IMG/VR virus record: IMGVR_UViG_3300025167_000028
Location: 1 to 39,924 of that record
Source of the DNA: a virus
Taxonomy: Duplodnaviria > Caudoviricetes
Direction: 5' to 3' (one strand)
DNA: 39,924 bases
Made by a program: the position numbers and the translations under genes. Under the pieces are notes generated by a model that was not told the DNA's origin, did no database searches, and saw only the letters and a list, made by a program, of their open reading frames with translations. Below are positions 1 to 14,717 of the stretch, in pieces (within the stretch, counting starts at the first letter, position 1; each line of letters starts with the position of its first letter).

Positions 1-2
1 TG

Positions 3-140
3 GGGGTAGGGGCGGGGATGATGTTAAAGGCCACCACGCCCGAACTGGAGGTCTTGGGCTTTGAGCTTGTCGCCATGCCTGTCAGCTTCCTTTTCGGCGA
101 AAGAATGTATCTTGGATTCAAAGGTAACATGGCTAAATGA
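3..140 (+). CDS. C-terminal part of a holin-like membrane protein (truncated by window start)
   Basis: Open frame GVGAGMMLKATTPELEVLGFELVAMPVSFLFGERMYLGFKGNMAK*; hydrophobic segment ending FLFGER resembles 3TM holin C-termini; plausibly continues ORF 39806..end. Confidence 0.55.
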   Translation, partial: GVGAGMMLKATTPELEVLGFELVAMPVSFLFGERMYLGFKGNMAK

Positions 141-160
141 AATCTATCCTGCGATAGGTG

Positions 161-188
161 GAATTCTGTCTAATACACTGTGTTATAC
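161..188 (+). other. attI-like recombination site 1
   Basis: GAATTCTGTCTAATACACTGT then GTTATAC; same 21-mer at 3385 and 8630; heads a cassette array; has 2 extra nt before GTT relative to the other copies. Confidence 0.7.
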
Positions 189-347
189 GGCAATGTTTTT
201 ACGGCACTGGTCCCATGCCAGAGCAGGGGTTTTCCCCCAGGCAAGGAGCGTTGCCGGTCCTTCTTCCCAAATGTGGTAACCACCCCATGTTGCCCGACAA
301 CAAAAGGCTCTCGGTATTATATTCAGTACAAACTGTTTCGCGGTCAT
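183..347 (-). CDS. hypothetical cassette protein (54 aa, MTAKQF...)
   Basis: GAGGA RBS before ATG at 347; stop TAA is the complement of TTA in the GTTATAC core. Confidence 0.55.
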   Translation of the reverse strand: MTAKQFVLNIIPRAFCCRATWGGYHIWEEGPATLLAWGKTPALAWDQCRKNIAV

Positions 348-359
348 GTTGTGGTCCTC

Positions 360-420
360 GTGTAACAAGTCATTCCAGCCGATCCTCGCTACGCTCGGGC
401 GGCTGAATTCCGGCTTATAC
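360..420 (+). other. attC-like site (R' core lacks its G)
   Basis: R'' GTGTAAC, 5 nt, L'' ATTCCAGC ... L' GCTGAAT, 6 nt, TTATAC; extra C in L''. Confidence 0.8.
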
Positions 421-1077
421 GTTGCGCTCGCAATCATCGTTTTTGCGGCAAATTATCCAGAAGCAATGACGCTTCCGGGCGTGGTGCGCGGTTTTCCATT
501 TCGTTGAAACCATCGGCCCTTTCCTGATTTTTACAATCAGATCGCAGACCGTGAAACCCGCTTCCTCGGCCATCCGCATAAAATCAGCGTGCGGCCATTT
601 CGATTTGTGGTTGTTCACCATGTCGGTGATTTTGGCGAGCAGCAAGCCGTTCGGCTTTAATACGCGCATGGCCTGTTTTAAGAACGGCGGATAGAGATAA
701 CTCAGGTTCCAATCCTGGTCGACCCCGCATTCCATTGTCGCGCCGAAGTCCACGTCGAAACGCTTTTTGCTTTTGTCCCGCCCTTGCGGGCCGACATGGG
801 GCGGATCGAATATTACCGCACCATACGTCGCTGCCTTGACGCCATTCATTACTCGATTGTCGCCAACAATCATTGGTTTGTATCGCGGGTCAATGTCCAT
901 CGACACCACTTTTCGCTTTGAGCCTTTCCACATGCGCCCGGCGTTGTAGGTTGAATCAAGAATCGGCTCGGGTGGGATTGTCGGGTAGAACTTGAACATC
1001 GCTTCCAGCAAATCGGAATCGTTTCCTTCCCACACGCTGCTAATCGGAGCGTAAAGGAATGGTGCGAGGTCAGTCAC
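415..1077 (-). CDS. DNA amino-methyltransferase-like protein (N6A/N4C)
   Basis: SAM-binding-like ILDSTYNAG..MDID, catalytic IFDPPH, AMRVLKPNG motif. Confidence 0.8.
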   Translation of the reverse strand: MTDLAPFLYAPISSVWEGNDSDLLEAMFKFYPTIPPEPILDSTYNAGRMWKGSKRKVVSMDIDPRYKPMIVGDNRVMNGVKAATYGAVIFDPPHVGPQGRDKSKKRFDVDFGATMECGVDQDWNLSYLYPPFLKQAMRVLKPNGLLLAKITDMVNNHKSKWPHADFMRMAEEAGFTVCDLIVKIRKGPMVSTKWKTAHHARKRHCFWIICRKNDDCERNV

Positions 1078-1259
1078 GGGCGAATTCCAAATGAGTCACG
1101 AAAAATACCAGTACATGCACAACAAAACCAAGTATGCCCGTTGTCCCGGCTATAGTGCCAAACATCATGCTGGCAAACGCGGCAGTAGGAAGTCCGACTC
1201 ATAACAACTGGCTGGAACCGACGCCGGAGACAGCGCAGCATGTTTCCTGTAGCGTTCAT
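1074..1259 (-). CDS. small protein with two CxxC motifs; N-terminus encoded in attC
   Basis: CRVC...CCAC; ATGA overlap with upstream stop at 1256 and overlap with the MTase start. Confidence 0.55.
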   Translation of the reverse strand: MNATGNMLRCLRRRFQPVVMSRTSYCRVCQHDVWHYSRDNGHTWFCCACTGIFRDSFGIRP

Positions 1260-1289
1260 GGCCGGCGCGGTTCATCCATGGCGTTATGG
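1199..1289 (+). other. attC-like site
   Basis: R'' TCATAAC, L'' GCTGGAAC, inner stem CGACGCCGG/CCGGCGCG, L' GTTCATC, R' GTTATGG. Confidence 0.8.
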
Positions 1290-1528
1290 TGAACAACCGA
1301 TGCCCAATGTACTGTGATGAAATTCTGTAAAAACTCAGAATCATCACCCATCGTCGGCCTTCCCTGTGATTTTGCCACGCTACGCGCAAGGTTCACGCAA
1401 TCATGCACAGTCGCCCGCAGCGTAATATGTGCTGAAATATCGTTCCCCTCTGGGCCAGTAGCGGGCCAAGGCTCTCTCCACTCAAGTTCTGCGGTGTGCC
1501 TATTTTCTAGCAGATCGTCAATGTTCAT
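1256..1528 (-). CDS. hypothetical cassette protein
   Basis: 90 aa, GGAGG RBS, ATGA coupling on both sides; ends NAMDEPRRP inside attC. Confidence 0.7.
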   Translation of the reverse strand: MNIDDLLENRHTAELEWREPWPATGPEGNDISAHITLRATVHDCVNLARSVAKSQGRPTMGDDSEFLQNFITVHWASVVHHNAMDEPRRP

Positions 1529-1713
1529 AGTTCCTCCGTGCGCTCGCCGGTTAAGGGCGCGTTAGGCAACGTATATTGATGATAGTATTTCCTTGTAAGC
1601 CTTTCGTATGTTTCAGCTCGTTCTTTATGAAGCCAAAAAGGATAAAGAAGTTCTGCTTCTTCCAAGGCTTTCTTCCTTGCCAGTTCCATCAACCCTACAT
1701 AATCGAGTTCCAT
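1525..1713 (-). CDS. hypothetical cassette protein
   Basis: 62 aa, AAGGAGGT RBS; ends NAPLTGERTEEL. Confidence 0.65.
   Translation of the reverse strand: MELDYVGLMELARKKALEEAELLYPFWLHKERAETYERLTRKYYHQYTLPNAPLTGERTEEL
1547..1567 (+). other. attC right arm only (left arm degenerate)
   Basis: CCGGTTAAGGGCGC-GTTAGGC; GTTAGGCAA is exactly complementary to TTGCCTAAC at 1724-1732. Confidence 0.6.
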
Positions 1714-1725
1714 TCAACCTCCTTT

Positions 1726-1857
1726 GCCTAACAAGCGGTTCGAGATCGGACGGGCCTCGTCAGTGCCGTGTGCGGTTTCGTCGCCTTCTATTGGTTTCTC
1801 ACCACTCATGGTTTCTCATCTCCGTTATCGGCCCGCCGCTCAACCGCAGCGTTAGAT
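1726..1857 (+). other. attC-like site (long loop)
   Basis: R'' GCCTAAC, L'' GTTCGAG, stem CGGACGGGCC/GGCCCGCCG, L' GCTCAAC, R' GTTAGAT. Confidence 0.85.
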
Positions 1858-2063
1858 GGTGTAAACCCCATCTGTTCCGGCACCCCGACATAAGTCAGAA
1901 GCCGCACAGTTTCCTCACGCCACATAACAAAATAAAAATCATCCTGGCCGTGAAGCAACCCGATAAAAATATATTCGTTGCCTTCTTCGTCGAAATACTT
2001 GTTCCCTATTAAGGGCTCGTATTCTTTAACCAGATTTGTCCAATTATCATCTGCGTATGCCAT
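1806..2063 (-). CDS. hypothetical cassette protein
   Basis: 85 aa; ends NAAVERRADNGDEKP inside attC loop. Confidence 0.65.
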   Translation of the reverse strand: MAYADDNWTNLVKEYEPLIGNKYFDEEGNEYIFIGLLHGQDDFYFVMWREETVRLLTYVGVPEQMGFTPSNAAVERRADNGDEKP

Positions 2064-2148
2064 CTAACCTCGCCTTGAACCGGACGCGGGTTACGCCGCG
2101 CCGTTTCCTGTTGTTGAATCAGCCGCGCCGGTTATGGCGGCGTTATAC
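2062..2148 (+). other. attC-like site
   Basis: R'' ATCTAAC; GCCTTGAACCGGACGCGG pairs with CCGCGCCGGTTATGGC with two extra bases on the left arm; R' GTTATAC. Confidence 0.85.
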
Positions 2149-2454
2149 GGCATCCCCTTTGTAGGTAAGGCTTAAGCCGCTCTGTCCGTCCGTACAGCAC
2201 CATATCTGCGGTAGTTGCGGGTATGGTGTTCCGGTGTTTGGCGCTTCGACCCAACGCGGAACGTGTGATGTTTCAAGCGGCCACGGCGGGGAGCGATCAC
2301 GCTCGATAATAATCGGAACGGAAGGAATGAACTTAGAACCGAAAAGCTCGTGTAGTTGATCGTGCAATTCCTTTGCTTCTTCAATAGAAAGCTCAACCTT
2401 CTTGCCGTCTTTCGTCTCAAGTTCAATCTTCGTTAGTTTCAATTTCTTTGTCAT
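2143..2454 (-). CDS. hypothetical cassette protein
   Basis: 103 aa, GGAG RBS; stop lies in the GTTA core. Confidence 0.7.
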   Translation of the reverse strand: MTKKLKLTKIELETKDGKKVELSIEEAKELHDQLHELFGSKFIPSVPIIIERDRSPPWPLETSHVPRWVEAPNTGTPYPQLPQIWCCTDGQSGLSLTYKGDAV

Positions 2455-2482
2455 GTCAGTCTCCGTTGTAGAAGAAAATGCC

Positions 2483-2539
2483 GTATAACACGGCGCTCAT
2501 GCCGACTCGCTACGCTCGCGGCATAGCTAGGCGTTGGGC
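2483..2539 (+). other. attC site (canonical 57 bp)
   Basis: GTATAAC-ACGGC-GCTCATGC-CGACTCGCTACGCTCGCG-GCATAGC-TAGGC-GTTGGGC. Confidence 0.92.
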
Positions 2540-2706
2540 GTCAAAATTTTTAGTGACAATTCCACTACGCATAAAGCACTTCCGACTTGAGCAAGGCATC
2601 GAAATTTATTGTTTAGTGTTGGTGTTGGCTCACCGATCAAGAAAATTCCTGGCGAAATCTCTTTACCGTCCATTTTAGGCAATTCCAAATTACCAATAAT
2701 CTCCAT
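2527..2706 (-). CDS. hypothetical cassette protein (59 aa, below ORF-track cutoff)
   Basis: MEIIGNLELPKMDGKEISPGIFLIGEPTP...KILTPNA*; fills the cassette. Confidence 0.6.
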   Translation of the reverse strand: MEIIGNLELPKMDGKEISPGIFLIGEPTPTLNNKFRCLAQVGSALCVVELSLKILTPNA

Positions 2707-2725
2707 GTCTATTTTCGTCCTTCAC

Positions 2726-2848
2726 GCCCAACCCGGCGCTCAACGCGGACGCTGCGCCAGCGGGCGTCTCGTCGGCTTGTGGTTTCTGGTCGTTCATCGC
2801 TTCGGCTCCTGTTCGTGGCGCGCAGCGCCGGTTAGCTCTACGTTAGAA
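2726..2848 (+). other. attC-like site
   Basis: R'' GCCCAAC, L'' GCTCAAC, stem CGGACGCTGCGC/GCGCAGCGCCG, L' GGTTAGC, R' GTTAGAA. Confidence 0.88.
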
Positions 2849-3129
2849 CGCACACGCTCGCACATAGCCTCGTGCATGGCCTCGGCTTCTTCCCATGTCG
2901 TGCAACGGTCTTGCTCTTGATCGAGCTTACCGCCGAATATCATCGTTTCAAAAAGAAGCGGGGGGCCGTCACCGTATTGATGGTTGAGGCCAAGAAAAAC
3001 CGTGCTCACTTCAACATCATCAATGGTCGTTTTACGAACTGCCCGGTCTGTTCTTTCAAACCTTCGTGCCCAAGTCATCAAGTCGGTTTTTACGGCCTTG
3101 TGTCCTTCAAGAATGTAGTGATCGCTCAT
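2794..3129 (-). CDS. phage hypothetical protein
   Basis: AAGGAG RBS before MSDHY; VSTVFLGLNH...PLLFETMIFGG motif familiar from phage early genes; ends NVELTGAARHEQEPKR in attC. Confidence 0.75.
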   Translation of the reverse strand: MSDHYILEGHKAVKTDLMTWARRFERTDRAVRKTTIDDVEVSTVFLGLNHQYGDGPPLLFETMIFGGKLDQEQDRCTTWEEAEAMHEAMCERVRSNVELTGAARHEQEPKR

Positions 3130-3142
3130 AAATTCTCCTTTG

Positions 3143-3325
3143 TTAATCCTTGGCCGCATTCCTGACCTGGATGTTAGTACTCAATGCGCGAATATCTTTT
3201 GCAGTGCCTCGCTGCTCTACAATGCACGCAGATGCTTCGACAGCTGTATCGTATGCCTTGCGAGCTAGTACAATATCTGCATCGCAACCGTACTTGACAC
3301 TTGAAATAAACTCTTCAAACTTCAT
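3143..3325 (-). CDS. hypothetical protein
   Basis: 60 aa, GAGG RBS. Confidence 0.55.
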   Translation of the reverse strand: MKFEEFISSVKYGCDADIVLARKAYDTAVEASACIVEQRGTAKDIRALSTNIQVRNAAKD

Positions 3326-3384
3326 CGTTATAACCTCATAAAGCCAGCCGGGATAGTCAGCGCGCCCCTAATCTTTCGTGGGCA

Positions 3385-3410
3385 GAATTCTGTCTAATAC
3401 ACTGTTAGCC
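3385..3410 (+). other. attI-like recombination site 2
   Basis: GAATTCTGTCTAATACACT-GTTAGCC; no hairpin; followed by a cassette with complementary ends. Confidence 0.8.
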
Positions 3411-3551
3411 CTCTCGGGCCTTCGCTACACGCTCCAGGTATCGGCGCACTCGTTCCCAGTCTTTCGGGTGGACCCATACCTGCCGGAGCGTGTAGCCCTT
3501 GGCACGCATCCTTGCGCGCTCGTCCCGCTTCCGTTGGGCGGCATCCTTCAC
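3405..3551 (-). CDS. small DNA-binding/antitoxin-like protein (DUF3018/RHH-like)
   Basis: MKDAAQRKRDERARMRAKGYTLRQVWVHPKDWERVRRYLERVAKAREG*; GTGA coupling; stop lies in the core. Confidence 0.6.
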   Translation of the reverse strand: MKDAAQRKRDERARMRAKGYTLRQVWVHPKDWERVRRYLERVAKAREG

Positions 3552-3724
3552 GGATAAATCCACCTGTACACTTCTTCCCCGCCTTCATCTTGGTCGAAGC
3601 GCACTAACCAATACTCCCCGTCCCCGCACTTCACGTCTTCGGCTTCAAGCAGGGTTGCCGTTCCCTCGTACTTTATTTTCGTAATTGGGTCTTCGTAAAT
3701 TTCTAATCTGTCGTATGGTTTCAT
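3548..3724 (-). CDS. small acidic hypothetical protein (58 aa)
   Basis: MKPYDRLEIYEDPITK...YRWIYP*; AGGAGG RBS; directly behind a consensus promoter. Confidence 0.7.
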   Translation of the reverse strand: MKPYDRLEIYEDPITKIKYEGTATLLEAEDVKCGDGEYWLVRFDQDEGGEEVYRWIYP

Positions 3725-3762
3725 GCTTCCTCCTGTTGTCGTAGCTCGATTGCTACAGACAC

Positions 3763-3791
3763 ATTATAGCACGTGACATGTCACATGTCAA
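3763..3791 (-). promoter_or_regulatory. consensus sigma70 promoter with palindromic operator
   Basis: TTGACA-17 nt-TATAAT; spacer contains the palindrome GTGACATGTCAC. Confidence 0.9.
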
Positions 3792-3794
3792 GAG

Positions 3795-3858
3795 GGCTAA
3801 CACGGCGCTCCACCGGATCGCGCGCTACGGCGCGCTCCCGGTGAGCTTGGCGTTAGAG
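3795..3858 (+). other. attC site (64 bp)
   Basis: GGCTAAC-ACGGC-GCTCCACC...GGTGAGC-TTGGC-GTTAGAG. Confidence 0.92.
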
Positions 3859-4208
3859 CCCATGCGCAGTAGCTCCTTGCCACGCCGCCAAATGTCCATG
3901 CGCAGTGCGCCTCGCGCCTCCATCTTCCGTGCCTGCGTCCAGGTAATCGCCTGCGTTATGCGTCGGCAGTCCATCTCGTGGCACATCTGCGGCTTCGTGC
4001 CGTGGATCGTGCAGCCTTCGTCGCCGAGGTACACGCAGGCGCCGTCCGGTTTGTGCGCCAGCATCCTCGCTTCCGGCATGTACGGATGCGGCTCCGTCTG
4101 GTACTTGCTCAGGTCGTCGCCAGCCAGCAGCCGCACCGCATCGTTGTGGCAGCAGCGCGTGCAGCCGTCGCACGGCACGTCGTACAAGGGCTCTAACATG
4201 GCGCTCAA
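3825..4208 (-). CDS. YkgJ-like cysteine cluster (Zn/Fe-chelating) protein
   Basis: CDGCTRCC...CVYL...GCTIHGTKPQMC pattern; ends NAKLTGSAP in attC; start uncertain. Confidence 0.75.
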   Translation of the reverse strand: MSAMLEPLYDVPCDGCTRCCHNDAVRLLAGDDLSKYQTEPHPYMPEARMLAHKPDGACVYLGDEGCTIHGTKPQMCHEMDCRRITQAITWTQARKMEARGALRMDIWRRGKELLRMGSNAKLTGSAP

Positions 4209-4210
4209 CC
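4191..4210 (+). other. attC left arm only
   Basis: CTCTAAC-ATGGC-GCTCAACC; GGGCTCTAAC complements GTTAGAGCCC at 3852; no right arm seen. Confidence 0.65.
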
Positions 4211-4287
4211 TCTAGCCGCGGTCTTGTGAAATCAATGCGCCGATCTTAATCTTTCCGTACATTCTCGCCTCCGTCTACGCCCAACAA

Positions 4288-4941
4288 TTAAATCCTCGCA
4301 ATCGCCTTGATCCGCATCCGGCGATTGCGAATCTGTTCGGCATATCCCGGCTCACCGCCGCTGTATCTGTGTTGTGCCCGCGCGATGGACTTGAAAGATT
4401 GTAGATGCTGAGCCATATATCGCGCACCTGCATGCAGATTAGCCTCGATACCGAATCGCTGGCTCCAATCCAACCCGAGAGCGCGCGCGGTGGCTGGCAT
4501 GATCTGGGCCAATCCTACCGCACCCGCGCGGCTGACGGCCCGTGAATCGAAATGCGATTCTTGCTCGATCTGCGCCGCCCACCAGGTCACATCCAGCCCA
4601 TGAGTTTCGGCGGAGACCACCAGGGCGCGGGCGATGCGCGACGCCGGGACACGAGGATTTACGCCAGCGACATATCGGGTCAGTCGATCAATTGTCTGCT
4701 CGCGCTTGGCGTCCGTAAGTTCGGCGGCGAGACTGATCGCCAGATCAACCGATTTCTCGGCGGTATCGGCAGCCTGTTTTATCAGACCATGAGCTGCGAA
4801 ATACTCGCCTCGCAGAAAATTGATCTCACGATCGCGCTCCATGACCGTGACGTATACCGCCGCCATCCCAAAAGCAGCGCCTATAACTGCGTGAATCAGC
4901 GCATCGCGCATGCCGTACCTATCATCATGTTGGATTTTCAT
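4288..4941 (-). CDS. lytic transglycosylase (SLT domain) with N-terminal TM segment
   Basis: EQES...AVSRAGAVGLAQIMPATA...NLHAGARY motifs. Confidence 0.88.
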   Translation of the reverse strand: MKIQHDDRYGMRDALIHAVIGAAFGMAAVYVTVMERDREINFLRGEYFAAHGLIKQAADTAEKSVDLAISLAAELTDAKREQTIDRLTRYVAGVNPRVPASRIARALVVSAETHGLDVTWWAAQIEQESHFDSRAVSRAGAVGLAQIMPATARALGLDWSQRFGIEANLHAGARYMAQHLQSFKSIARAQHRYSGGEPGYAEQIRNRRMRIKAIARI

Positions 4942-5467
4942 ATACCAGCGCCCGAAGAGCGAATTGTTGCAGATCAATTTTCAGGCCCGCCGTCTCCGCC
5001 GCCCGCGCCGCCGCCCGCGCCGCCGCCGTCTCCGCCGCCCGCGCCGCCGCCCACGCCGCCTGCGCCCCCCGATCTTTACCGGCAAGCCAGTTCGCCGCCC
5101 ATACGTGAAATTTCGGCTCGTCATAAACAGCGAGCGCGCAGTAGATCGCAAACGCCACTCGTTGCTTGGTCGTGAACACGGGCAGTGGTAATTCCTTAGT
5201 CAGCCGCATCCGCTTGGCCCCGCCCTTAAGACCGTCGTGCGCAACCTGGTCGCACTCGACCGCGAACAGGCGTGGGCTCTGAATATGCGCGTGTGCGGGG
5301 TTCAGAAGAACTGCTAACTCAGGCGAGTCGTAAAAATGGAACACGTCGGCGGAACAGAGCACGTTGCCGGGGGTATCTATCTCATGTATCTCGCCCAAGT
5401 GCCACTGAAAACCGCAGTGGGTGCACATTGTCTGATCGGTCAATTTATATTTTGTGAGGAGCTCCAT
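4925..5467 (-). CDS. phage hypothetical protein with Ala-rich repeats
   Basis: AAWAAARAAETAAARAAARAAETA low-complexity tract; coupled to neighbours. Confidence 0.7.
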   Translation of the reverse strand: MELLTKYKLTDQTMCTHCGFQWHLGEIHEIDTPGNVLCSADVFHFYDSPELAVLLNPAHAHIQSPRLFAVECDQVAHDGLKGGAKRMRLTKELPLPVFTTKQRVAFAIYCALAVYDEPKFHVWAANWLAGKDRGAQAAWAAARAAETAAARAAARAAETAGLKIDLQQFALRALVYENPT

Positions 5468-6147
5468 CAAAATCTCCATCCCAGCACGATCACATTCGTT
5501 TGCCCTACCCCTGCCATAAAGCTATGGTTATTAAAACGACCGCCGACATCGGTAATATATGCGTACCATCCAAGCGAGAAATTCTTTCCGCGCACACCCG
5601 TCCCCGCCATCCACCCAAATCCATGTAATGTTTCATTGAACGTGTTTCCATTGAACGTACTTCCATTATAAAAATACTCATCTTTCCACAGGGAAAAAGA
5701 CTGTCTGAAGCCACCTGCGCCGATCTCCACGAAGGCATGCCGGCCGAATACGCGCGAGACCAGGAAGGCGCGCATGGAGCCAGTGGTATGATAAAAATCA
5801 ACATCGCCCTGGCAGCTTTGCCCACCTCCGGCGAGGATACAATCTTCATTATCCGAAGCGTAGCCAGCGAGCGAGTAAACGCCCAGATCGGCATACGAAA
5901 GCCTCCAACCCCCATGATCCAATCCGATTCTGAACATCGAGGGCTTCATGTTCCAATCCACTCCGTAGCCCGCGCATTCCTGATGCCACAAACCGCATGG
6001 AGGCTTTTCGTATTTCGATTGCCCGATTTCGATGAAAGGTGTGGCGGCGCAGGCGTCCTTGATGTACGAAAATCCCACTAGAAACAATAGCACCGCAATC
6101 CAAAATGCGGTATAGGATTTGATTAACAGCTTTGTGTCTTCGTCCAT
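5467..6147 (-). CDS. putative outer-membrane beta-barrel protein
   Basis: Signal-peptide-like N-terminus, amphipathic Gly/aromatic strands, C-terminal VIVLGWRF. Confidence 0.6.
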   Translation of the reverse strand: MDEDTKLLIKSYTAFWIAVLLFLVGFSYIKDACAATPFIEIGQSKYEKPPCGLWHQECAGYGVDWNMKPSMFRIGLDHGGWRLSYADLGVYSLAGYASDNEDCILAGGGQSCQGDVDFYHTTGSMRAFLVSRVFGRHAFVEIGAGGFRQSFSLWKDEYFYNGSTFNGNTFNETLHGFGWMAGTGVRGKNFSLGWYAYITDVGGRFNNHSFMAGVGQTNVIVLGWRF

Positions 6148-6156
6148 TGAGGTCTC

Positions 6157-6456
6157 CTACGATCGGTTATAAGCGCGCAATACACCTTTTGCTTCATCTC
6201 GTTCGGCGACATATTCCAGCAATAGACCAAGCCAAGCTCTTAGCGGCCAGTCGGGGTTGTATGTGCGAAAATCTTCCAAACTTTTATACCCCGTCGCTTC
6301 CAGATATTGTGTTTCTGTTATCCGGAAACGTCTCAGCCAACGCCTCATATTTTCATTCGTGGGCTCCGTCCTCCAGTTAGGCAATCTGATGTAAAAACGC
6401 CTTGCAAGACCAACCCAGGTCTCGTTGTCAACAAATTGGTTTCGTAGCGTGTTCAT
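6157..6456 (-). CDS. hypothetical protein
   Basis: 99 aa ORF in the leftward operon. Confidence 0.6.
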   Translation of the reverse strand: MNTLRNQFVDNETWVGLARRFYIRLPNWRTEPTNENMRRWLRRFRITETQYLEATGYKSLEDFRTYNPDWPLRAWLGLLLEYVAERDEAKGVLRAYNRS

Positions 6457-6650
6457 GGCTCAAGTAGGGGTGCTGAATGCTGTAACTATGGCACTTAGGC
6501 CTAGTCGAGTCAAGTTTTAGGCTAACCTGATCTTGCCCGATGCTAGTTGCCCCAAGCGCAGGCGCTTATACCGCGCGAGTCTTAGCCACATGATGCGCGC
6601 GCATAGTTTGTGCCCGCGCGCGCGGACCACGATTTTGACGGCATTGGGGC

Positions 6651-7415
6651 TCATATTTTCTCCAGATATTTTTTATCCAGTTGCCAGTAAGCAAGTAGTA
6701 ATCGGAACTTTTCAAATCCAGTGTCGAGATGTGATTGATCCCATTCATGAACACGGGTCAAGCCGGGATTATTGACTGAAATAAATATATTTATTCCCCT
6801 GGAGCTTGGCATTCCAAGCCCCGCACGATAAGCGGCCAATTGCATGCATTGTTCCGGCCACGTTAAGTTATCGCTGGTTTCGGAAAATTCCTTGGTTTTG
6901 AAGTCAATCACCATCGAGTCATTGTGCAAATCCACCTTCCCCCCGTAACCCAAGGGCGAGGCGAACGATCTTTCGCTATGCCACCTATCGCCTAATTTGT
7001 TCAGTTCTTCCAATACGGCGGTAACAAATTTTTCATGGGCAGGGTTAAAATTCTTGTGTTGCAAAGCGCGATCTATCGAGCCATGAATTGCAGACCCTTC
7101 CTCGGCTCTTTTCCTCGACTGTTCTTTGGCGTCCCGCGTAACTCGAACCGCGAAATCATCCAATGTTTCGTCCGGATCCATAGGAAGCGTCAAGGCCGCC
7201 AAAATCGCCTGCCGCAGTTTCCATTTTTCTAAGCCCGGCTTGGAAACGATGGACGTAATCATCGTCACGCTGGGGAACAACCCCAAACGGCGGGCATCGC
7301 GTAGCGTAGTCGGGCGCTCCGGCTTATCCCCAACACGGATTGTGTACACCGGAGAGCCGTCTCGGGCATACCAATGCCCCGACTCAAAAGCTATTTTCTT
7401 TTCCATCTTTAACAT
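6651..7415 (-). CDS. PD-(D/E)XK exonuclease (recombination)
   Basis: PSVT, GSAIH, E...GKVD...IDFKT, QLAAY motifs. Confidence 0.85.
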   Translation of the reverse strand: MLKMEKKIAFESGHWYARDGSPVYTIRVGDKPERPTTLRDARRLGLFPSVTMITSIVSKPGLEKWKLRQAILAALTLPMDPDETLDDFAVRVTRDAKEQSRKRAEEGSAIHGSIDRALQHKNFNPAHEKFVTAVLEELNKLGDRWHSERSFASPLGYGGKVDLHNDSMVIDFKTKEFSETSDNLTWPEQCMQLAAYRAGLGMPSSRGINIFISVNNPGLTRVHEWDQSHLDTGFEKFRLLLAYWQLDKKYLEKI

Positions 7416-7987
7416 CAGAATCCAATGTCATCGTCAAAATCAGGAAAATCAGGAGAAGACTCTTGCTTGTTTGTTGATCGGTTGATTTTCTTGGATAGCC
7501 ACTCCGGCAGTTTGCTGAATTGATCCTCATCCGGCGCGTCGAGAGAGAAAGAAATAAGATCGTTCACGGGTTCCGGTTTCACAGTCCCTTTAGGAAGGGA
7601 GGCGACGGTTTTGACGTTTGCATATTGTTTGCCGGTTTTTGAAATTGTGTGAATCACCGTCAACATGCAGGGCGCGCCAAGAATTTTAAAAATATCGAAA
7701 CCCCCCAGTTCCTCCTCGGTAAAAGCCCGCCCCCGCCAGGACACCAAGTCCTGAGCCAAGTTCGAGTCTGGATGCAGCGAGGCGGTATATTCCTTTGCGA
7801 TCATGAAGGGACGACCATCTTCCATAAGCTCATTGGGAAATTCCCACCCCACGCGAATTTTGTGCTTCGCCCCAAACGGGGTATTTTGAGACCCCAGATC
7901 TACCACCATGTAACACCGGGCTATATGCGTTCCCTGCGGAGCAAGTTGAAATTCCCCTTCCGGTGGCTTGCGAATAATCAGCGTCAT
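7415..7987 (-). CDS. ssDNA-binding/recombination-associated protein
   Basis: GTHIARCYMVVDLG N-terminus, acidic tail DFDDDIGF, adjacent to the exonuclease. Confidence 0.7.
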   Translation of the reverse strand: MTLIIRKPPEGEFQLAPQGTHIARCYMVVDLGSQNTPFGAKHKIRVGWEFPNELMEDGRPFMIAKEYTASLHPDSNLAQDLVSWRGRAFTEEELGGFDIFKILGAPCMLTVIHTISKTGKQYANVKTVASLPKGTVKPEPVNDLISFSLDAPDEDQFSKLPEWLSKKINRSTNKQESSPDFPDFDDDIGF

Positions 7988-8169
7988 TTCACGATCTCCT
8001 CGTAATTGATCCCGCACTCAAAACATAAATGTTTAAATTCCTCAGTCACCCCGGAGTGCTTGATCGCTGCATAGACTTTACGCAAACACTCAAATGTATA
8101 ATATTCCCGTTCTTCAAGGTCGCGCCGCTGTTCTTCATTCCAATCCGTTTCACCCATCATTTCTTTCAT
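7984..8169 (-). CDS. hypothetical protein
   Basis: GGAGG RBS; coupled to the next gene. Confidence 0.6.
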   Translation of the reverse strand: MKEMMGETDWNEEQRRDLEEREYYTFECLRKVYAAIKHSGVTEEFKHLCFECGINYEEIVK

Positions 8170-8458
8170 CGGCAACCTCCTTCTCAGCTTGTTGAAAGGC
8201 GCTATCCGCCAAGTAGTCTTTGACGAGCCCAGCTAATAGTTGGCCGACATAAGGCACGCCGATATAAGCATTATCTGTTTTGAGGCAGTCGGCGATTTCA
8301 GACATCTCTTTTCTGTCGCGGTTATAAGCCCAGGTAACCGCCTGAGAGACGATGTAAGCATCAATGTGTCGAAGATTCAGCGCATAGATTTCGTCTGCGC
8401 GACCGGATATATCCTGTCTGTTTTCAGATTCAACGTCATAGATCGGATGTACCTCCAT
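8150..8458 (-). CDS. hypothetical protein
   Basis: AAGGAG RBS before MEVHPIY. Confidence 0.65.
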   Translation of the reverse strand: MEVHPIYDVESENRQDISGRADEIYALNLRHIDAYIVSQAVTWAYNRDRKEMSEIADCLKTDNAYIGVPYVGQLLAGLVKDYLADSAFQQAEKEVADERNDG

Positions 8459-8586
8459 AAGATTCTCCTTTTTAAAGATTCCCGCCACCCTCCGACGGGA
8501 CGCCCAATAAGGGCGGAGCTTCGGGAAGACCCCAGGAACGCTGCTCATCACGTCAGACTTTAGTCGTCTCCGAGGCAATTCATAGT

Positions 8587-8617
8587 ACCGTTCGTCGGCT
8601 GATTATTGCCGTTCATC
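8587..8617 (+). promoter_or_regulatory. tandem AlgR/LytTR-like boxes
   Basis: ACCGTTCGTC at 8587 and GCCGTTCATC at 8608 (21-bp period). Confidence 0.5.
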
Positions 8618-8629
8618 GTTTGATAGGCG

Positions 8630-8655
8630 GAATTCTGTCTAATACACTGTTAGGC
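8630..8655 (+). other. attI-like recombination site 3
   Basis: GAATTCTGTCTAATACACT-GTTAGGC; preceded by GATAGG as in copy 1. Confidence 0.8.
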
Positions 8656-8916
8656 ATCATTCAGCCATACCTTCACTAATATAAAGTCATGCTTCTTTGC
8701 TACATTAATAGATGGTTGCCATTTCTTGTAAAATGGTTTCATCCATTCCTTTTCGTAGTACAGGAAATCAAACGCCTTCCCCCAAGCTTCGTCTTTATGA
8801 ACAGAAAATGTTTGCTTTACCAGAGTTCCACTAGGCGTTTGCAAACACCAGCCATCATGCCTAACAAGGCCAATCGAGCCGACGCCTTTGCCAGCGTTCC
8901 GTTTCCTGTTAATCAT
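8650..8916 (-). CDS. hypothetical cassette protein
   Basis: Starts in the attC loop (MINRKRNAGKGVGSIGLVR); stop lies in the core. Confidence 0.65.
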   Translation of the reverse strand: MINRKRNAGKGVGSIGLVRHDGWCLQTPSGTLVKQTFSVHKDEAWGKAFDFLYYEKEWMKPFYKKWQPSINVAKKHDFILVKVWLNDA

Positions 8917-8945
8917 TTCGGCTCGGCTCATTGGCATCGTTGGGC
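8859..8945 (+). other. attC-like site
   Basis: R'' GCCTAAC; GCCAATCGAGCCGACGCC pairs with GGCTCGGCTCATTGGC with two extra bases on the left; R' GTTGGGC. Confidence 0.85.
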
Positions 8946-9163
8946 GACAAGTATGTCCTATCTGTTGGTATTACCTTCTCTGCACCGCACTTTGAACATC
9001 GGATAATCAGTAGTGATACATCTCCTTTTTTAGAGCCATCATCTATGCTTATAACGTCGTATCGGTCGTGAGAGACACCAAGGAAAGCGTGTACGCAGAA
9101 TATTTTTTGAATCCAGCCGCCCAACAATTCTTTCAAGCGGACGCTCGGCAACAGCGCAGTCAT
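8909..9163 (-). CDS. hypothetical cassette protein (CxH...CxxC)
   Basis: FCVH...RCSKCG; starts and stops inside attC loops. Confidence 0.7.
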   Translation of the reverse strand: MTALLPSVRLKELLGGWIQKIFCVHAFLGVSHDRYDVISIDDGSKKGDVSLLIIRCSKCGAEKVIPTDRTYLSPNDANEPSRND

Positions 9164-9206
9164 GGTTTATCCTTTGCGGCTCGCGCCGCTTAAAGAAGCG
9201 TTAGGA
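9119..9206 (+). other. attC-like site
   Basis: GCCCAAC-AATTC-TTTCAAGC...GCTTAAA-GAAGC-GTTAGGA. Confidence 0.9.
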
Positions 9207-9318
9207 AATTTTGTTGCGACTTTTGTGAATCTAAAACCCAACGGTCGTTACCAGCGTGCCTCCAGCCGGAACTTATCAAAAGAATTACCTCTGGCTCGTT
9301 AGCATCTATATCGCGCAT
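9190..9318 (-). CDS. short cassette ORF (42 aa), possibly a remnant
   Basis: GGAGG RBS, MRDIDANEPEV...NFLTLL*. Confidence 0.4.
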   Translation of the reverse strand: MRDIDANEPEVILLISSGWRHAGNDRWVLDSQKSQQNFLTLL

Positions 9319-9333
9319 ATTTCCTCCGTTTAC

Positions 9334-9355
9334 GCCTAACAATTCGCTCGTGCGG
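9334..9355 (+). other. attC left arm only
   Basis: GCCTAAC-AATTC-GCTCGTGC-GG, then breaks off. Confidence 0.6.
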
Positions 9356-9360
9356 ATTAG

Positions 9361-9531
9361 CTACGCAGCTTCTTTGATAATCTCACCCGCATATTCCTGC
9401 TCACTCTCATCAAATATGTAGATTTTATGAAAGTCGTCCTCGCAGCAGCTATAAACCAGCAAAATGCGACAAATCGGGCTGATCTCAGCCTGAGGTAGAT
9501 CGCGCTCGTCGTATTGGTGAAGATGTAACAT
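9361..9531 (-). CDS. hypothetical protein
   Basis: AGGA RBS before MLHLHQY; overlaps the end of the Cro-like gene. Confidence 0.5.
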   Translation of the reverse strand: MLHLHQYDERDLPQAEISPICRILLVYSCCEDDFHKIYIFDESEQEYAGEIIKEAA

Positions 9532-9694
9532 CGTTTTTCCTGATTCCGAGTCTTTGTCTAGCGCCCATAATCCGATCGGTCTGAGATTGCGGGAGTATGT
9601 TGGGCCACATATAAACAGCATGCCGTCCTACCCCGAGTGCGGCGGCTAGGGCTTTTACCGAGCCAAACAGGACTATTGCTTGTTGTTTTGTCAT
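9485..9694 (-). CDS. Cro-like HTH transcriptional regulator
   Basis: AIVLFGSVKALAAALGVGRHAVYMW HTH signature, 69 aa. Confidence 0.85.
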   Translation of the reverse strand: MTKQQAIVLFGSVKALAAALGVGRHAVYMWPNILPQSQTDRIMGARQRLGIRKNDVTSSPIRRARSTSG

Positions 9695-9700
9695 AAGTCG

Positions 9701-9729
9701 AAGATAAGCGCAATTACATCTATTGTCAA
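9701..9729 (-). promoter_or_regulatory. sigma70 promoter for the Cro-like gene (probably leaderless)
   Basis: TTGACA-17 nt-TATCTT; ATG begins 7 nt after the -10 element. Confidence 0.7.
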
Positions 9730-9802
9730 ATGTTTTACTTATTCTCGGATCTCGGACGAACGGTAATATTTTGGGCTTGTTATTATTAGTAAACCAGTTT
9801 AC

Positions 9803-9860
9803 ATTTAACGCCGGAAATCACGGGCCGGCGTAGCCGGTCCCGTGGATTGATTTGTTAGGG
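9803..9860 (-). other. attC site on minus strand
   Basis: Minus strand: CCCTAAC-AAATC-AATCCACG...CGTGATT-TCCGGC-GTTAAAT. Confidence 0.9.
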
Positions 9861-9906
9861 CGCATTTGGGAAAGAGCATGAGAACAGAACAGACAGAGGA
9901 TGAATT

Positions 9907-10098
9907 ATGAATAAATCCATGATGCAAAAATCCCTAGACAAACAAATTGAATACATGAAGGAGGAGGTTGCTTGGTATGAAAATAAAGTGATAAGTGGTA
10001 AAGATTGGCTTGATGAATTAAATAATTGTCGGGCAATTCTTAAAACACTTGAAAGTCTCCGAGACGAGCCAACCAAACTGGTAGCAACGGAGAAATAA
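9907..10098 (+). CDS. hypothetical cassette protein
   Basis: 63 aa, GAGGA RBS. Confidence 0.65.
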   Translation: MNKSMMQKSLDKQIEYMKEEVAWYENKVISGKDWLDELNNCRAILKTLESLRDEPTKLVATEK

Positions 10099-10112
10099 AA
10101 TATGGTTAAAAA

Positions 10113-10176
10113 GGTAACAGGCGCATGACGGCAGCTTCATCGCCGGAAGGCGTCCTTGTTGACCGCCTTGTTAGCC
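10113..10176 (-). other. partly degenerate attC (minus strand)
   Basis: Minus strand R'' GGCTAAC-AAGGC-GGTCAACAAGGACGC; partner GGTAACAGGCGC on plus; R' not recognisable. Confidence 0.55.
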
Positions 10177-10754
10177 GGCAATTGCTCGGCTATGACAGGG
10201 CGGCAGCAGCGGACACCATACGGCGCAACCACTACACCCGGAGCGTGCCCAGCGGGAAGAGTCACTACGTCCAGTTTGGCGACGCGATAGTGGTGTGGTC
10301 AATCCCCGCGAACAAGAACATTGCGCGGTTTGTTCTCGGCTGGGCCGGCAACGTGTGGGAGTTGTCGAGGCTGTGGGCACCGGACGGGCACGAGCCGAAC
10401 TTGCTCACGCAAGCCATAAGCGCAGCCGTCAAGGTGATTGTGCGGCTTGAGCGGCCCGACGCGCTGGTGAGCTACGCCGACCCGAACGCGGGGCACAAGG
10501 GCGGGGTTTACAGGGCCGCGTCTTGGCTCTACCACGGCAAGAGCGAAGAAGTGAGGACGTACCGGGCACCAGACGGAACGACCGTAGCGCGCAGGGCTTT
10601 CCATTCCGGGCGGAAGGGGCTGCGAAAGGCTGAGATTGAAGCACTCGGCTACAAGGAAGAAAAGTTGCCCGGCAAAGAACGGTTTGTGCGGCCCATATCA
10701 AAGCGGGCAGCGCGGACTTTGACGGCTAACGCCGGAAATCACGGGCCGGCGTAG
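10125..10754 (+). CDS. Mom-like (GNAT-fold) DNA modification protein
   Basis: RNHY, WELSRLW, LVSYADP..GHKGGVYRAASWLYHG motifs; starts and ends in attC sites. Confidence 0.7.
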   Translation: MTAASSPEGVLVDRLVSRQLLGYDRAAAADTIRRNHYTRSVPSGKSHYVQFGDAIVVWSIPANKNIARFVLGWAGNVWELSRLWAPDGHEPNLLTQAISAAVKVIVRLERPDALVSYADPNAGHKGGVYRAASWLYHGKSEEVRTYRAPDGTTVARRAFHSGRKGLRKAEIEALGYKEEKLPGKERFVRPISKRAARTLTANAGNHGPA

Positions 10755-10781
10755 CCGGTCCCGTGGATTGACTGGTTAGCG
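10724..10781 (-). other. attC site on minus strand (45 bp identical to 9806-9850)
   Basis: Minus strand: CGCTAAC-CAGTC-AATCCACG...CGTGATT-TCCGGC-GTTAGCC. Confidence 0.9.
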
Positions 10782-10802
10782 GTAATTGACAGGAGATAAA
10801 CC

Positions 10803-11090
10803 ATGAAACAACGTAAACCAAAATTGGATTCTAACCGCATTCCTTACGCTGTAGTTTCCATAGATAAATTGATTGAAATAGCAGAAAGGATAGTGAAACT
10901 TGAAAGTGAAGTTGAGCACCTGAAACAAACGGCAGGGAATACAGAGAGCCAGATGATAGAGCTTCTTGTTCCGCATATCTCTGATTTCCGGGACGGAAAA
11001 GTTTTTATCCGCGCCCAGGGCGAAGATGGGGCGATCTATCGTGCCGAGGTTCAAATCGTCGGGGCGGTGGGCGTAGACCCAGAGTATTAA
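10803..11090 (+). CDS. hypothetical cassette protein
   Basis: 95 aa, AGGAG RBS. Confidence 0.7.
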   Translation: MKQRKPKLDSNRIPYAVVSIDKLIEIAERIVKLESEVEHLKQTAGNTESQMIELLVPHISDFRDGKVFIRAQGEDGAIYRAEVQIVGAVGVDPEY

Positions 11091-11093
11091 ATG

Positions 11094-11122
11094 ACCGCTA
11101 ACGCAGAATTGAGGCGCTCGCC
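11094..11122 (-). other. attC half-site (R' arm, minus strand)
   Basis: ACCGCTAAC complements GTTAGCGGT at 10775; encodes MTANAELRRSP*. Confidence 0.55.
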
Positions 11123-11266
11123 ATGAAAGCATAAATGCCCTGACTGTGGGAAGTACGCAATCTGGAAGCTGAGAAAGTTTAAGGCGTTGCGGCTTGCGCC
11201 ATGTGCTTGACCTTGTGCTATGTATACATCATTATGTCGGAACCCTAACAAATCCGACAAAAACTT

Positions 11267-12022
11267 ATGTACACTAAGCTCTATAGAGGAATAGTTGACG
11301 GTTCATTGTACGGCAGAAGGGAGGCATTAACGGTGTTTTTCGTCATGCTGGCCTTAGCAGATCAAGAAGGAATTGTAGATGTTCTTCCTAGAAAGATAGC
11401 CGATATCCTTGGAGAAACAGAAGACTTTGTAACTATCGGACTCGCGGAATTGTCTGCTCCAGACCCCATAAGCCGAACCCCAACCGCAGAGGGCAGACGA
11501 ATTCTTCCCTTGAACGAGCATAGAACTTGGGGCTGGAAAATAACTAATTATGAAGCCTACCGGAAGATTCGAGATGAAGAACAGCGTCGGGAATATCAAC
11601 GTCAGTGGGATAGGAATAAACGTAAACGTCCGACCACAAATCCGACAGCATCCGACAAATCCGACCACATCCGACCAAAAACGACCAATACAGAAGCAGA
11701 AGCAGATACAGAAGCAAAAGTATTAACTACATTAGCTTCGAGCGAGAAAATCTCGCTCTCAGCCGAAGGCGTTTGGCAAAACATCCCGAACTCCCTATTG
11801 GCAACATGGCAAAAAGGGCACCCCGCAGTCAACATTGAGACGGAGCTTTCAAAGGCCGCTGCATGGATTATGGCTAACCCGAAGAACCGAAAGAACAACT
11901 ACGCCCGCTTTTTTACGAACTGGCTGTCCAGATCGCAAGACAACGCGCCCCGCCAAGGCAAAATCCACCGCGCCCTGGAAGCCTGTGACAAGGTGTTTGG
12001 GCCGATGAGGGCGAAGCCATGA
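11267..12022 (+). CDS. phage replication initiator (lambda O-like organisation)
   Basis: N-terminal wHTH-like region, internal iterons, C-terminal FFTNWLSR motif, genomic position. Confidence 0.75.
   Translation: MYTKLYRGIVDGSLYGRREALTVFFVMLALADQEGIVDVLPRKIADILGETEDFVTIGLAELSAPDPISRTPTAEGRRILPLNEHRTWGWKITNYEAYRKIRDEEQRREYQRQWDRNKRKRPTTNPTASDKSDHIRPKTTNTEAEADTEAKVLTTLASSEKISLSAEGVWQNIPNSLLATWQKGHPAVNIETELSKAAAWIMANPKNRKNNYARFFTNWLSRSQDNAPRQGKIHRALEACDKVFGPMRAKP
11629..11675 (+). repeat. iterons / probable replication origin
   Basis: TCCGAC at 11629, 11641, 11651, 11660 and 11670; inverted pair at 11236 and 11253 upstream of the gene. Confidence 0.75.
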
Positions 12023-12594
12023 CCCTCATCGAAACCATCCGCAACGAACTGGCCCGCATGCTGGCCCGCCAGCTCGACTACGCCCCCGCCGCCGACGAGT
12101 TGCCCTTCAGCATCCAGGTCATGTCCGACGACCTCACCAGGCGAGGCCTGGCAGACGACGACGCCGGACGGGTACAGGCCGCGTTCGAGGTCCTCGGGCC
12201 CCAGATCCAACGCTGGCCCACGGCCCGCATGGTCCTAGAATGTCTGCCGGCAAAGGCGACACCCGTGATGCTGCCCGCGCCCAAACCCGACCAGAAGTTT
12301 GTATCGGCACAACTGAACACAACCAAGAAAAACCATGCCCTCCGCTCGGTGCTTCGGCCTGGTGAAAGTTATAATGCCTACATGGATGCAATGCTCGCGT
12401 CTGGTTTACTGCGTGCCGCGTTCGAGGCGCAGCGTCTATTGGCAAATGGCTGGACCGACGATAAGGAGCGCGGATTCAGAACCGCCGCGCATGCGTGCAG
12501 GTTGGGGACATTGCCTGGCGCCACACCGGCAGACATCGCCTTGGCGTCCGACCTCGAAGCAGCAGCCGAACGCGAAGCGATCCAGCGTGAGTAA
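12019..12594 (+). CDS. replication-associated protein (P-like position)
   Basis: ATGA-coupled to the initiator; WPT motif. Confidence 0.55.
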   Translation: MTLIETIRNELARMLARQLDYAPAADELPFSIQVMSDDLTRRGLADDDAGRVQAAFEVLGPQIQRWPTARMVLECLPAKATPVMLPAPKPDQKFVSAQLNTTKKNHALRSVLRPGESYNAYMDAMLASGLLRAAFEAQRLLANGWTDDKERGFRTAAHACRLGTLPGATPADIALASDLEAAAEREAIQRE

Positions 12595-13051
12595 CCGCAA
12601 GCTGAACGAGAAGCATTTTATTCTTCGTTCCAACGCCGTGAGAGATTTTATATGCGACACACTGGAAGCCCTGACGTTCGACCCCGTATATGAAATTATC
12701 ATCCGCCCGTTTGAAAAACACCGTACTCATGGGCAAAATGATCGTTATTGGGCGACGCTGACCGAATGCCTGCGGCAAATCAAGCAAACGGTTTATGGTT
12801 TGGCCGAAAGTTCCGGCCATACTCCGTTGGAAATCAGGCGCCTGATCGCGGCGGATTTATTGCCTGAGCAAATAGCAATTTTATTCGCCAAGACTCCTGA
12901 AACAGTGCACGATGTCCTGAAAGAAATCTGCGACGTACCGACTAGCACCCGGCTGGGGACGAAAGAATTTCAGCGATTTGAGGAACGCATGGAGCAAACG
13001 ATAGCCGAGATTGCGGGGCACGTTGGGGCGTTTAGGGGGCGATTTGAGTAG
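12587..13051 (+). CDS. NinB-like protein
   Basis: FILRS...IIIRPFEKHRTHGQNDRYWA; GTG start. Confidence 0.65.
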   Translation: MSNRKLNEKHFILRSNAVRDFICDTLEALTFDPVYEIIIRPFEKHRTHGQNDRYWATLTECLRQIKQTVYGLAESSGHTPLEIRRLIAADLLPEQIAILFAKTPETVHDVLKEICDVPTSTRLGTKEFQRFEERMEQTIAEIAGHVGAFRGRFE

Positions 13052-13424
13052 TGATCGTCGCAAGCTGGAAAAAAAACTGGATGTTGTTTTTTCGCGTTAT
13101 ATCCGCATGCGAGATAAATTGACATGCCGGCGTTGTCAGAAAAAATACGATAGGTTCTGTATCGGAATTCAATGTAGTCATTTTTGGGGCCGCCGGCATC
13201 GCGCGACTAGGTGGAGTGAGTTAAATTGCATTGCGTTATGTGCTGGTTGTCACATGCATTTGACCGCTAATCCCGCGATACATCATGTCTGGTATATGGA
13301 GCTAATCGGCCCCGGAGCCTACATGCGGCTGGAGCATTTGCATAATAGCTCGCCGAAATTTACTTCGGCGGATTTATCGTTGTTATTGCAAGACTACCGC
13401 AAAAAACTGGAGGCCTTATCTTGA
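13044..13424 (+). CDS. NinG/Rap-like nuclease
   Basis: VFSRYIRMRD..CRRC..CSHF..ATRW..LNCIALCAGCH. Confidence 0.8.
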   Translation: MSSDRRKLEKKLDVVFSRYIRMRDKLTCRRCQKKYDRFCIGIQCSHFWGRRHRATRWSELNCIALCAGCHMHLTANPAIHHVWYMELIGPGAYMRLEHLHNSSPKFTSADLSLLLQDYRKKLEALS

Positions 13425-13651
13425 AAACTTGCATTAGTTGTCACGCCCTCTTAGATCGTGATCCGGCCTGTTCTGATACTAACTGGCGAAGAAAAAAATA
13501 TTGTTCAAAACGCTGTAATGATGCAACGCAAAAACTTCGATATAACGAAAAAAAGAAAAAACGCCTACAATTAAAACAGGAATTTCACGAGAAAAAACAA
13601 GCTCGGGAAACAAGCATACAGTCCTTGTTGTGCTCAAATTGGCGGCTGTAG
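13421..13651 (+). CDS. small Zn-finger-like protein
   Basis: CISC...KYCSKRC. Confidence 0.55.
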   Translation: MKTCISCHALLDRDPACSDTNWRRKKYCSKRCNDATQKLRYNEKKKKRLQLKQEFHEKKQARETSIQSLLCSNWRL

Positions 13652-13862
13652 TGGCTTTCCCTTCGCGGTTTTATCACGATCCTGCAAATGTATTGCAATA
13701 TAACGACCGGTACCGCATCGGGTGTCCGGCCTGCTTGCATTCTCGCTATTTTCGCAAAGGCGATATATGGTATTGTGGTCTTCATATTCAAGGTTTTCCG
13801 AAACTGGGAAGAGATGGTTGTGTGCGATGGAAAAAATCGAATAAAAAATCCTGGGAGAAAAG

Positions 13863-14462: not shown

Positions 14463-14475
14463 CCCATCTCGTCTA

Positions 14476-14706: not shown

Positions 14707-14717
14707 TTGATTGGGAA

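Follow-up and report, generated by a model that had tools for sequence, protein, structure and literature searches.

Here, we analyzed the whole of the viral record IMGVR_UViG_3300025167_000028, a stretch of 39,924 nt (the window), and found four arrays of integron-like cassettes among its early genes, with the cassette genes facing backward relative to their attC recombination sites. The phage has P22-like head, portal, and ejection genes. Its completeness was estimated at 96%, and the circle was closed by two overlapping contigs bridging the ends of the record; since only 119 bp were missing, the gene set was regarded as effectively complete. The phage was present in 20 metagenome runs from 17 studies of soil, groundwater, and sediment, possibly one campaign, and none of the runs listed for it was an RNA run. 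GenBank phages gave no DNA match for arrays 1 and 2 or for arrays 3 and 4, and thus no cultured relative. A first-pass annotation, made from the sequence alone, had placed the four arrays at 161-3334, 3385-4210, 8630-9355, and 9803-11122, and four arrays were found in this region.

Array 1 starts with copy 1 of an attI core (161-188, + strand), which has two extra bases before the GTT of the first cassette (182) and is probably degenerate. It is followed by an attC at 360-420 (+) and by a DNA methyltransferase gene (415-1077, −; phrog_24333, E 9e-22), ahead of which lies a coupled 61-aa open reading frame (ORF; 1259-1074). Next come an attC at 1199-1289 (+), a 90-aa gene (1256-1528, −) whose own attC is reduced to its right half (L'-R', 1536-1567, +), and a 62-aa gene (1525-1713, −). 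The attC at 1726-1857 (+) has in its loop a relay ORF of 31 aa and a ribosome-binding motif, both on the coding strand, and precedes an 85-aa gene (1806-2063, −); a homologue of its cassette occurs in phages L036 and L096, in other arrays. The array continues with an attC at 2062-2148 (+), a 103-aa gene (2143-2454, −), an attC at 2483-2539 (+), a 59-aa gene (2527-2706, −), an attC at 2726-2848 (+), and a two-gene cassette (121 and 60 aa; 2794-3334, −) with a lone R'' at its end. In array 2, attI core copy 2 (3385-3410, +; crossover G at 3404) heads a two-gene cassette (58 aa and a 52-aa regulator-like protein; 3404-3801, −) with its own sigma-70 promoter match (12/12, 3791-3763), and then an attC (3795-3858, +) and a 127-aa gene with a CxxCxxCC domain (PF03692; 3825-4208, −), with a half attC (R''-L'') at 4189-4210. 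Array 3 is composed of attI core copy 3 (8630-8655, +; crossover G at 8649), a gene of at most 95 aa (8650-8937, −), an attC at 8859-8945 (+), an 84-aa gene (8909-9163, −), an attC at 9119-9206 (+), and a short ORF of 42-50 aa (9190-9356, −) with a half attC (R''-L'') at 9334-9356. Array 4 lies on the other strand and contains attC sites at 9803-9860, 10067-10176, and 10724-10781 (all −), genes for a 63-aa protein (9907-10098, +), a Mom-family DNA modification protein (10125-10754, +; PF25680, E 4e-21), and a 95-aa protein (10803-11090, +), and, at its head, a half attC (L'-R', 11094-11122, −).

About 11 attC-type sites had been proposed in the first-pass annotation, with an R''-5 nt-L''...L'-5/6 nt-R' anatomy and an extra base on the L'' arm. 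All of them were found in place with this anatomy; the extra base is at position 4 of L'', and 6-7 of the 7 arm pairs form, dropping to 3-5/7 without the bulge and to 2.5-5/7 with the bulge on the other arm. The list was amended in two respects: site 360 is degenerate, having CTT for GTT, and a twelfth full attC, that at 10067-10176 (−), had been overlooked, giving a total of 12 attC-type sites within 161-11122, one of them degenerate. As for the proposed half-sites, five remain half attC sites, and the heads of arrays 1-3 are attI cores instead. A strict attC finder, custom-built for this analysis, made 10 calls in positions 1-11200 and 1 in the remaining 28.7 kb, and 100 first-order Markov resamplings gave a mean of 0.12 calls and a maximum of 1; the finder missed sites 360 and 1726 and mis-registered 2726. 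The free folding energy of the sites gave z values between −3.8 and +1.1, and those of 360, 2483, and 2726 were close to or above zero. Under constrained folding, the bottom strand had the lower energy in 8 of 11 sites, and its predicted recombinogenic fraction exceeded that of the top strand in 7 of 11, with two near ties. Moreover, the ends of most cassettes are complementary at 11-14 of 17 bases (14/17 for 2142-2489 and 13/17 for 3852-4197, for instance), although four rows of this comparison were off register. Rfam gave 0 matches across the window.

From the extra base, the top strand of the sites is the plus strand in arrays 1-3 and the minus strand in array 4, and the genes were on the opposite strand each time. 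The coding strand is backed by three clear family matches, the methyltransferase, Mom, and CxxCxxCC proteins, all antisense. Gene direction was called automatically by a rule combining an ORF with a ribosome-binding motif, which replaced noisier longest-ORF calls, and the window sites were scored as 7 antisense, 3 ambiguous, 1 without boundary, and 0 sense. As a polarity control, the finder called three sites of the TJE1 phage with the bottom strand as listed, and recombined, by Qi et al. 2023 (PMC9892861), and the genes there were sense. In a viral sample drawn from IMG/VR by attC pattern (129 loci, from a total estimated at 230 stretches), 120 distinct sites gave 62 antisense, 1 sense, and 13 ambiguous calls, with 44 lacking a boundary. 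Bacterial control arrays showed the opposite tendency, with 8 sense, 1 antisense, 12 ambiguous, and 5 without boundary among the 26 sites of a first set, and 20, 1, 17, and 8, respectively, among the 46 sites of a second. On the mRNA strand, the stop codon of the upstream gene falls within 11 of the 12 attC sites, and the loops of 1199, 1726, 2726, 9119, and 10067 hold a start codon that overlaps this stop or follows a ribosome-binding motif; in 9119, both motif and start codon belong to the 84-aa gene. Thus, the arrangement of complete integrons, with genes co-oriented with attC and read from the cassette promoter Pc at attI, was not found in the window, and the first-pass annotation, which rightly took these units for real cassettes, had overlooked both the reversed polarity and the attI copies. 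Four short direct repeats, iteron-like, were seen at 11640-11675 within a putative replication initiator gene. An origin there would place the bottom strand of arrays 1-3 on the lagging template and that of array 4 on the leading template, so replication fails to explain the orientation and was rejected as its cause; polarity follows transcription.

The attI core measures 21 bases, is present in three identical copies (161, 3385, and 8630), and occurred 0 times in 100 shuffles; array 4 starts with a half attC in its place. Over 22 bp, the core is identical in sequence to the attI found in complete integrons of gammaproteobacteria, including that beside intI in loci L044 and L045, so this element of a complete integron is present in the phage; the upstream direct repeat of the bacterial attI is not kept whole at the phage copies. 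Of 23 metagenome loci, 5 had core and GTT upstream of an intI transcribed divergently; the match was exact in L044, L045, L047, and L050 and had one change in L041, and L045, L047, and L050 look like one locus. The IntI of L045 scored 442 bits on TIGR02249 (cut-off 265). Close attI variants flank intI in genomes G004 and G003. The order of G004, labelled Acidiferrobacterales, was covered by 103 genomes, of which 10 contained the core within 2 mismatches (0 with a reversed-pattern control) and 29 an IntI over the TIGR02249 cut-off, and the attI variants head sense arrays in this order. When window positions 1-17500 were compared with these genomes, scoring only 2 candidates per genome, 48 of the 59 matches were attC or attI, 9 a GC-rich repeat, 1 cargo, and 1 elsewhere. 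In phages L038 and L011, the core stands directly behind an attC right half, in a delta-attI-like module; as in delta-attI-type sites, the truncated attI core of these phages and of the window lies away from intI and keeps its crossover. Four of 11 genome matches to a loose attI pattern (L015, L019, L020, and L022) looked like chance and were rejected. The same core was also observed in L016, a metagenome-assembled genome of Planctomycetaceae, followed directly by an integrase-like and transposase-like gene pair and no cassette.

Comparison with relatives bore out the expectation of the first-pass annotation that genes are gained, lost, and reordered at the GTT box. L036 and L053 have the core genes of the window, at about 87%, together with the attI at 8630; past GTTAGG the likeness ends, and four different cassettes follow, the last of which is a homologue of the 85-aa array 1 cassette, before the core resumes. 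In L096, the 95-aa array 4 cassette with its attC (99% over 397 bp) is in another array, joined at GTTAGCC to the window cassette that follows attI 2, and in the unrelated locus L137, the Mom cassette has 89% DNA identity starting at the GTT box. A Mu-like segment of G141 has three reversed cassettes, one encoding a protein 57% identical to the 121-aa protein of 2794-3334. One sense cassette is found among the reversed ones of L011, consistent with uptake of a host-type cassette. The cargo had been described as phage-like and is indeed shared between phages, with almost none of it in the bacterial genomes searched. A junction of L007, L008, and L060 at window position 11117 (L007:8488) was rejected as evidence of exchange, since the switch to the L096 phage runs through the shared 397-bp cassette and the junction probably reflects chimeric assembly. 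In 18 distant loci with exonuclease relatives (32-48% identity), attC calls numbered only 2 and were weak, and therefore the arrays do not follow the exonuclease gene. Besides its perfect promoter match, cassette 3404-3801 has a small regulator and a palindrome resembling an operator; in L096 (4648-4992), promoter and regulator are retained, and the first gene is swapped for an unrelated 65-aa gene. A tRNA-Trp closes the reversed array of L096 (6218-6293).

As in clusters of attC sites lacking integron integrases (CALINs), several attC sites with the R''/L''/L'/R' anatomy and the extrahelical base are present, and no integron integrase lies nearby. PF00589, the tyrosine recombinase family, had no match in the window, and no IntI remnant was detected there by tblastn. 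With no integrase of its own, the phage likely borrows one from the host, and the identity of its attI with that of bacterial integrons strengthens this reading; attI sites are reported to be recognized only by the cognate integrase, and attC sites to be promiscuous (PMC2095811). On these sequence grounds, we infer that host IntI acts in trans on the phage sites.

Other phages of this kind carry intI. Fifty viral records from the 129 loci contained 2 IntI over the TIGR02249 cut-off, in G022 and G027, the only IntI-family phages scored with this profile, and 1 internally deleted copy. The latter (L228:1348-1855, from G034) still has an attI-like site in place and offers a snapshot of integrase loss. 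In G022, the reversed cassettes, attI, intI, excisionase, and integrase follow in this order on one strand. A profile search gave 578 IntI relatives, of which the best 80 were retained, with proteins 45-100% identical to that of G027; addition of the GenBank virus Rctr41k (KX853513) made 81 loci, of which 77 were parsed and 56 had enough flank. In these 56, the genes upstream of intI were co-directional with it in 50, divergent in 2, and ambiguous in 4. Rctr41k (L246, 4680-9434) has an IntI-like gene annotated as xerD with three reversed attC sites downstream. In L247-L326, the phage-type attI upstream of intI is conserved; it includes a repeat box, and its spacer lacks one base relative to that of the bacterial-type core in the window. 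Similar short sites mark the left limit of many IntI-less arrays. In a phylogenetic tree, 44 viral IntIs grouped with a Shimodaira-Hasegawa-like approximate likelihood ratio test (SH-aLRT) value of 98, and a value of 99 united the four bacterial IntIs found beside the window-type attI. The tree came from a quick search in which IntI1 and one Xer row were unparsed and duplicates and rows below 300 aa were removed, leaving 79 of 86; bacterial sampling was sparse, and since viral rows were picked by likeness to one phage IntI, the viral grouping should not be read as monophyly. Given an IntI-bearing phage family with the same reversed arrays, in which a true intI is placed past attI within the same operon, the window phage is best read as an IntI-less member of it that uses a host-type attI.

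As many of these phages encode their own IntI, a second possible source of the enzyme for the same cassettes is a co-infecting phage or prophage, with the host chromosome playing the lesser part. The arrays beside the best 80 viral IntI-like genes are reversed likewise (76 antisense and 8 sense of 137 sites), the viral IntIs form the group described, and attC x attC reactions need no cognate attI. However, the phage attI differs in sequence as well as in spacer, the window core was absent within 3 mismatches from loci L097-L326 outside the relative G006, and bacterial IntIs, on a branch of their own, accompany the window-type attI, so we regard a mainly phage-borne enzyme as unlikely. It may also be asked whether the sites are relics of a past IntI, with homologous-recombination proteins shuffling genes via attC anchors and hairpins persisting as translation-coupling spacers. 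Decayed sites and half-sites, the exonuclease, NinB-like, and NinG-like genes of the phage, the 96% identity of sites 9803 and 10724 over 53 bp, and the lack of excision joints in the contigs of 8 runs would fit this scenario, but the breakpoints are confined to a box of 6-10 bp whose flanks are otherwise unrelated, also where attI is set against attC, complementary ends are held by most cassettes, and three identical attI cores plus a moved, 99%-identical cassette point to recent activity, making relics quite improbable. Service of the sites by a phage Xer-type recombinase, suggested by some tyrosine-recombinase match in 11 of 50 viral records, is hardly credible, since PF00589 was absent from the window and from 8 of 8 related viral records searched (most of them incomplete), so that no Xer-like recombinase was found at an array end in this set, the recombinase at the attI of an array, where present, is a true IntI, most other such matches read as ordinary integrases elsewhere in the record, and the window attI is that of IntI integrons.

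The explanation we favor, and consider probable, is that these are backward-facing integron cassette arrays, three of them set at copies of a bacterial attI, in which an IntI supplied in trans, most likely from a chromosomal integron of the host, likely inserts, excises, and reorders cassettes. IntI is described as recombining the folded bottom strand of attC, which normally orients genes for Pc (PMC5027507, PMC5371416), and excision as being raised by lagging-strand exposure (PMC13108822). In the phage, the recombinogenic bottom strand would be the mRNA-like strand, so that attC precedes the gene in each cassette, often with the start signal in its loop. Phage early promoters would read the cargo, host IntI may act on replicating phage DNA and add cassettes at the promoter-distal attI, and attC x attC recombination would remove them. 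Host integron cassettes, many of them reported to be anti-phage (10.1101/2024.07.02.601686), are predicted to insert against the direction of phage transcription and remain silent, as would phage cassettes in a host integron.

Several observations weigh against this explanation. The excised circles and empty junctions anticipated by the first-pass annotation were not seen in the contigs of 8 of the 20 runs, where contigs drop rare variants, and the joints listed in that search match co-occurring relatives. The free-energy z-scores fail to separate all sites from shuffles, the predicted recombinogenic fraction is ≤1e-3 for 2726 and 10067, and the top strand is favored at 4 of 11 sites, strongly at 8859. 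Site 360, the five half-sites, and the two extra bases of attI 1 indicate decay. The direction of genes depends on the ORF-plus-ribosome-site rule, and some phage arrays are not reversed (3/3 sense in TJE1, besides the 8 sense sites next to viral IntI). Shared GTTAG-type boxes would give short homology to the recombination proteins of the phage itself, and the internal difference of cassette 3404-3801 in L096 is unexplainable by IntI. Finally, attC sequence is also shared with a second order, used as a control (20 of 104 genomes, including one unpublished genome, G208).

On a wider scale, the data suggest a mirror image of the bacterial integron economy, with a phage IntI clade, a cassette pool common to unrelated types of phage (P22-like, Mu-like, and lambdoid), and integrase-less members that captured a host attI as a movable module; polarity would keep phage and host pools mutually silent and shield the phage from anti-phage cassettes, and cassettes would be made de novo from phage genes. 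We lean only slightly toward this broader scheme.

The remainder of the window yielded other observations. The Cro-like gene (9485-9694, in region 9485-9800) has a leftward promoter-like site ahead of it (9701-9729, −; a consensus match only). A CI-like repressor and an integrase were absent among the 66 proteins scanned, giving a lambdoid layout with no obvious lysogeny module around 9485-9800. A GC-rich repeat of 9-12 bp at 4975-5067 encodes an alanine-rich tract in a 184-aa gene (DUF7666, weak match). An IS1595-family transposase gene (NF033547, PF12762; 14849-15769, −) is found in a reversed block between a Q-like gene and the terminase region, and no 14-bp terminal inverted repeat was found near it. 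The large terminase gene (18061-20079, +) has an insert at about residues 77-250 that looks intein-like from its motifs, with no match in Pfam. A free-standing HNH endonuclease gene (32012-32614, +) lies among the virion genes. PADLOC, run on 19 proteins, returned methyltransferase matches only.

Integrons have been treated as bacterial devices in which attC polarity guarantees expression from Pc; here, the opposite polarity appears to organize the accessory early genes of a phage, offering a site-specific route to phage genome mosaicism. The arrays also give access to the question of how cassettes are created, since a pool of phage-specific genes fused in reverse to attC cannot come from bacterial arrays, and to the way phages renew counter-defense genes, methyltransferases and Mom among them. 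By matching a bacterial site exactly, the attI of this genome singles out a candidate enzyme and points to a host group, a handle that most other phages do not provide.

Compared with known systems, the closest are the phage CALINs of Qi et al., who, among 10,705 phage genomes, reported 17 CALINs besides 3 complete integrons and 1 In0, and showed recombination of 5 of 6 tested phage attC sites by IntI1 (PMC9892861). Integrase-less attC clusters in phages and methyltransferase cargo are common to both, but the TJE1 array has the normal orientation, and in the window phage the genes are reversed, the four arrays account for the greater part of the accessory early genome, three are headed by attI, and exchange is visible. 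That study excluded partial genomes such as Rctr41k, and its accessible text describes no reversed cargo, attI-headed multiple arrays, or phage IntI clade. Canonical integrons share with the window the attC anatomy, the identity of the attI core, and crossover at the GTT box, and differ in having intI and Pc beside attI; the genes of the window arrays are antisense to attC, an orientation described as blocking expression from Pc (PMC5027507). The delta-attI-type cassettes of class 1 and 2 integrons likewise have short attI fragments away from intI, and these were shown to recombine (PMC12901181); the fragments in the window are of another attI class, occur in a phage, and head arrays instead of closing a resistance gene. 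In the integrons with inverted integrase (PMC13323075), intI and the cassette genes point the same way, a feature shared with the IntI-bearing relatives, but there intI is flipped relative to attC and the genes follow attC, whereas the phage family keeps a regular intI-attI-attC geometry and has its genes flipped. IntI is also reported to insert cassettes at GWT motifs (attG) outside integrons, with no orientation bias and in bacterial chromosomes (10.1101/2022.09.11.507474); this is a plausible route of array seeding, and attI copies 1 and 3 start just after GAT. No paper on a reversed phage-cassette family was found in the literature searched, mostly outside subscription journals. Collectively, integrase-less attC clusters in phages were already known (PMC9892861), and the reversed, attI-headed form, well supported as DNA anatomy and as a history drawn from comparison of relatives, appears to be new.

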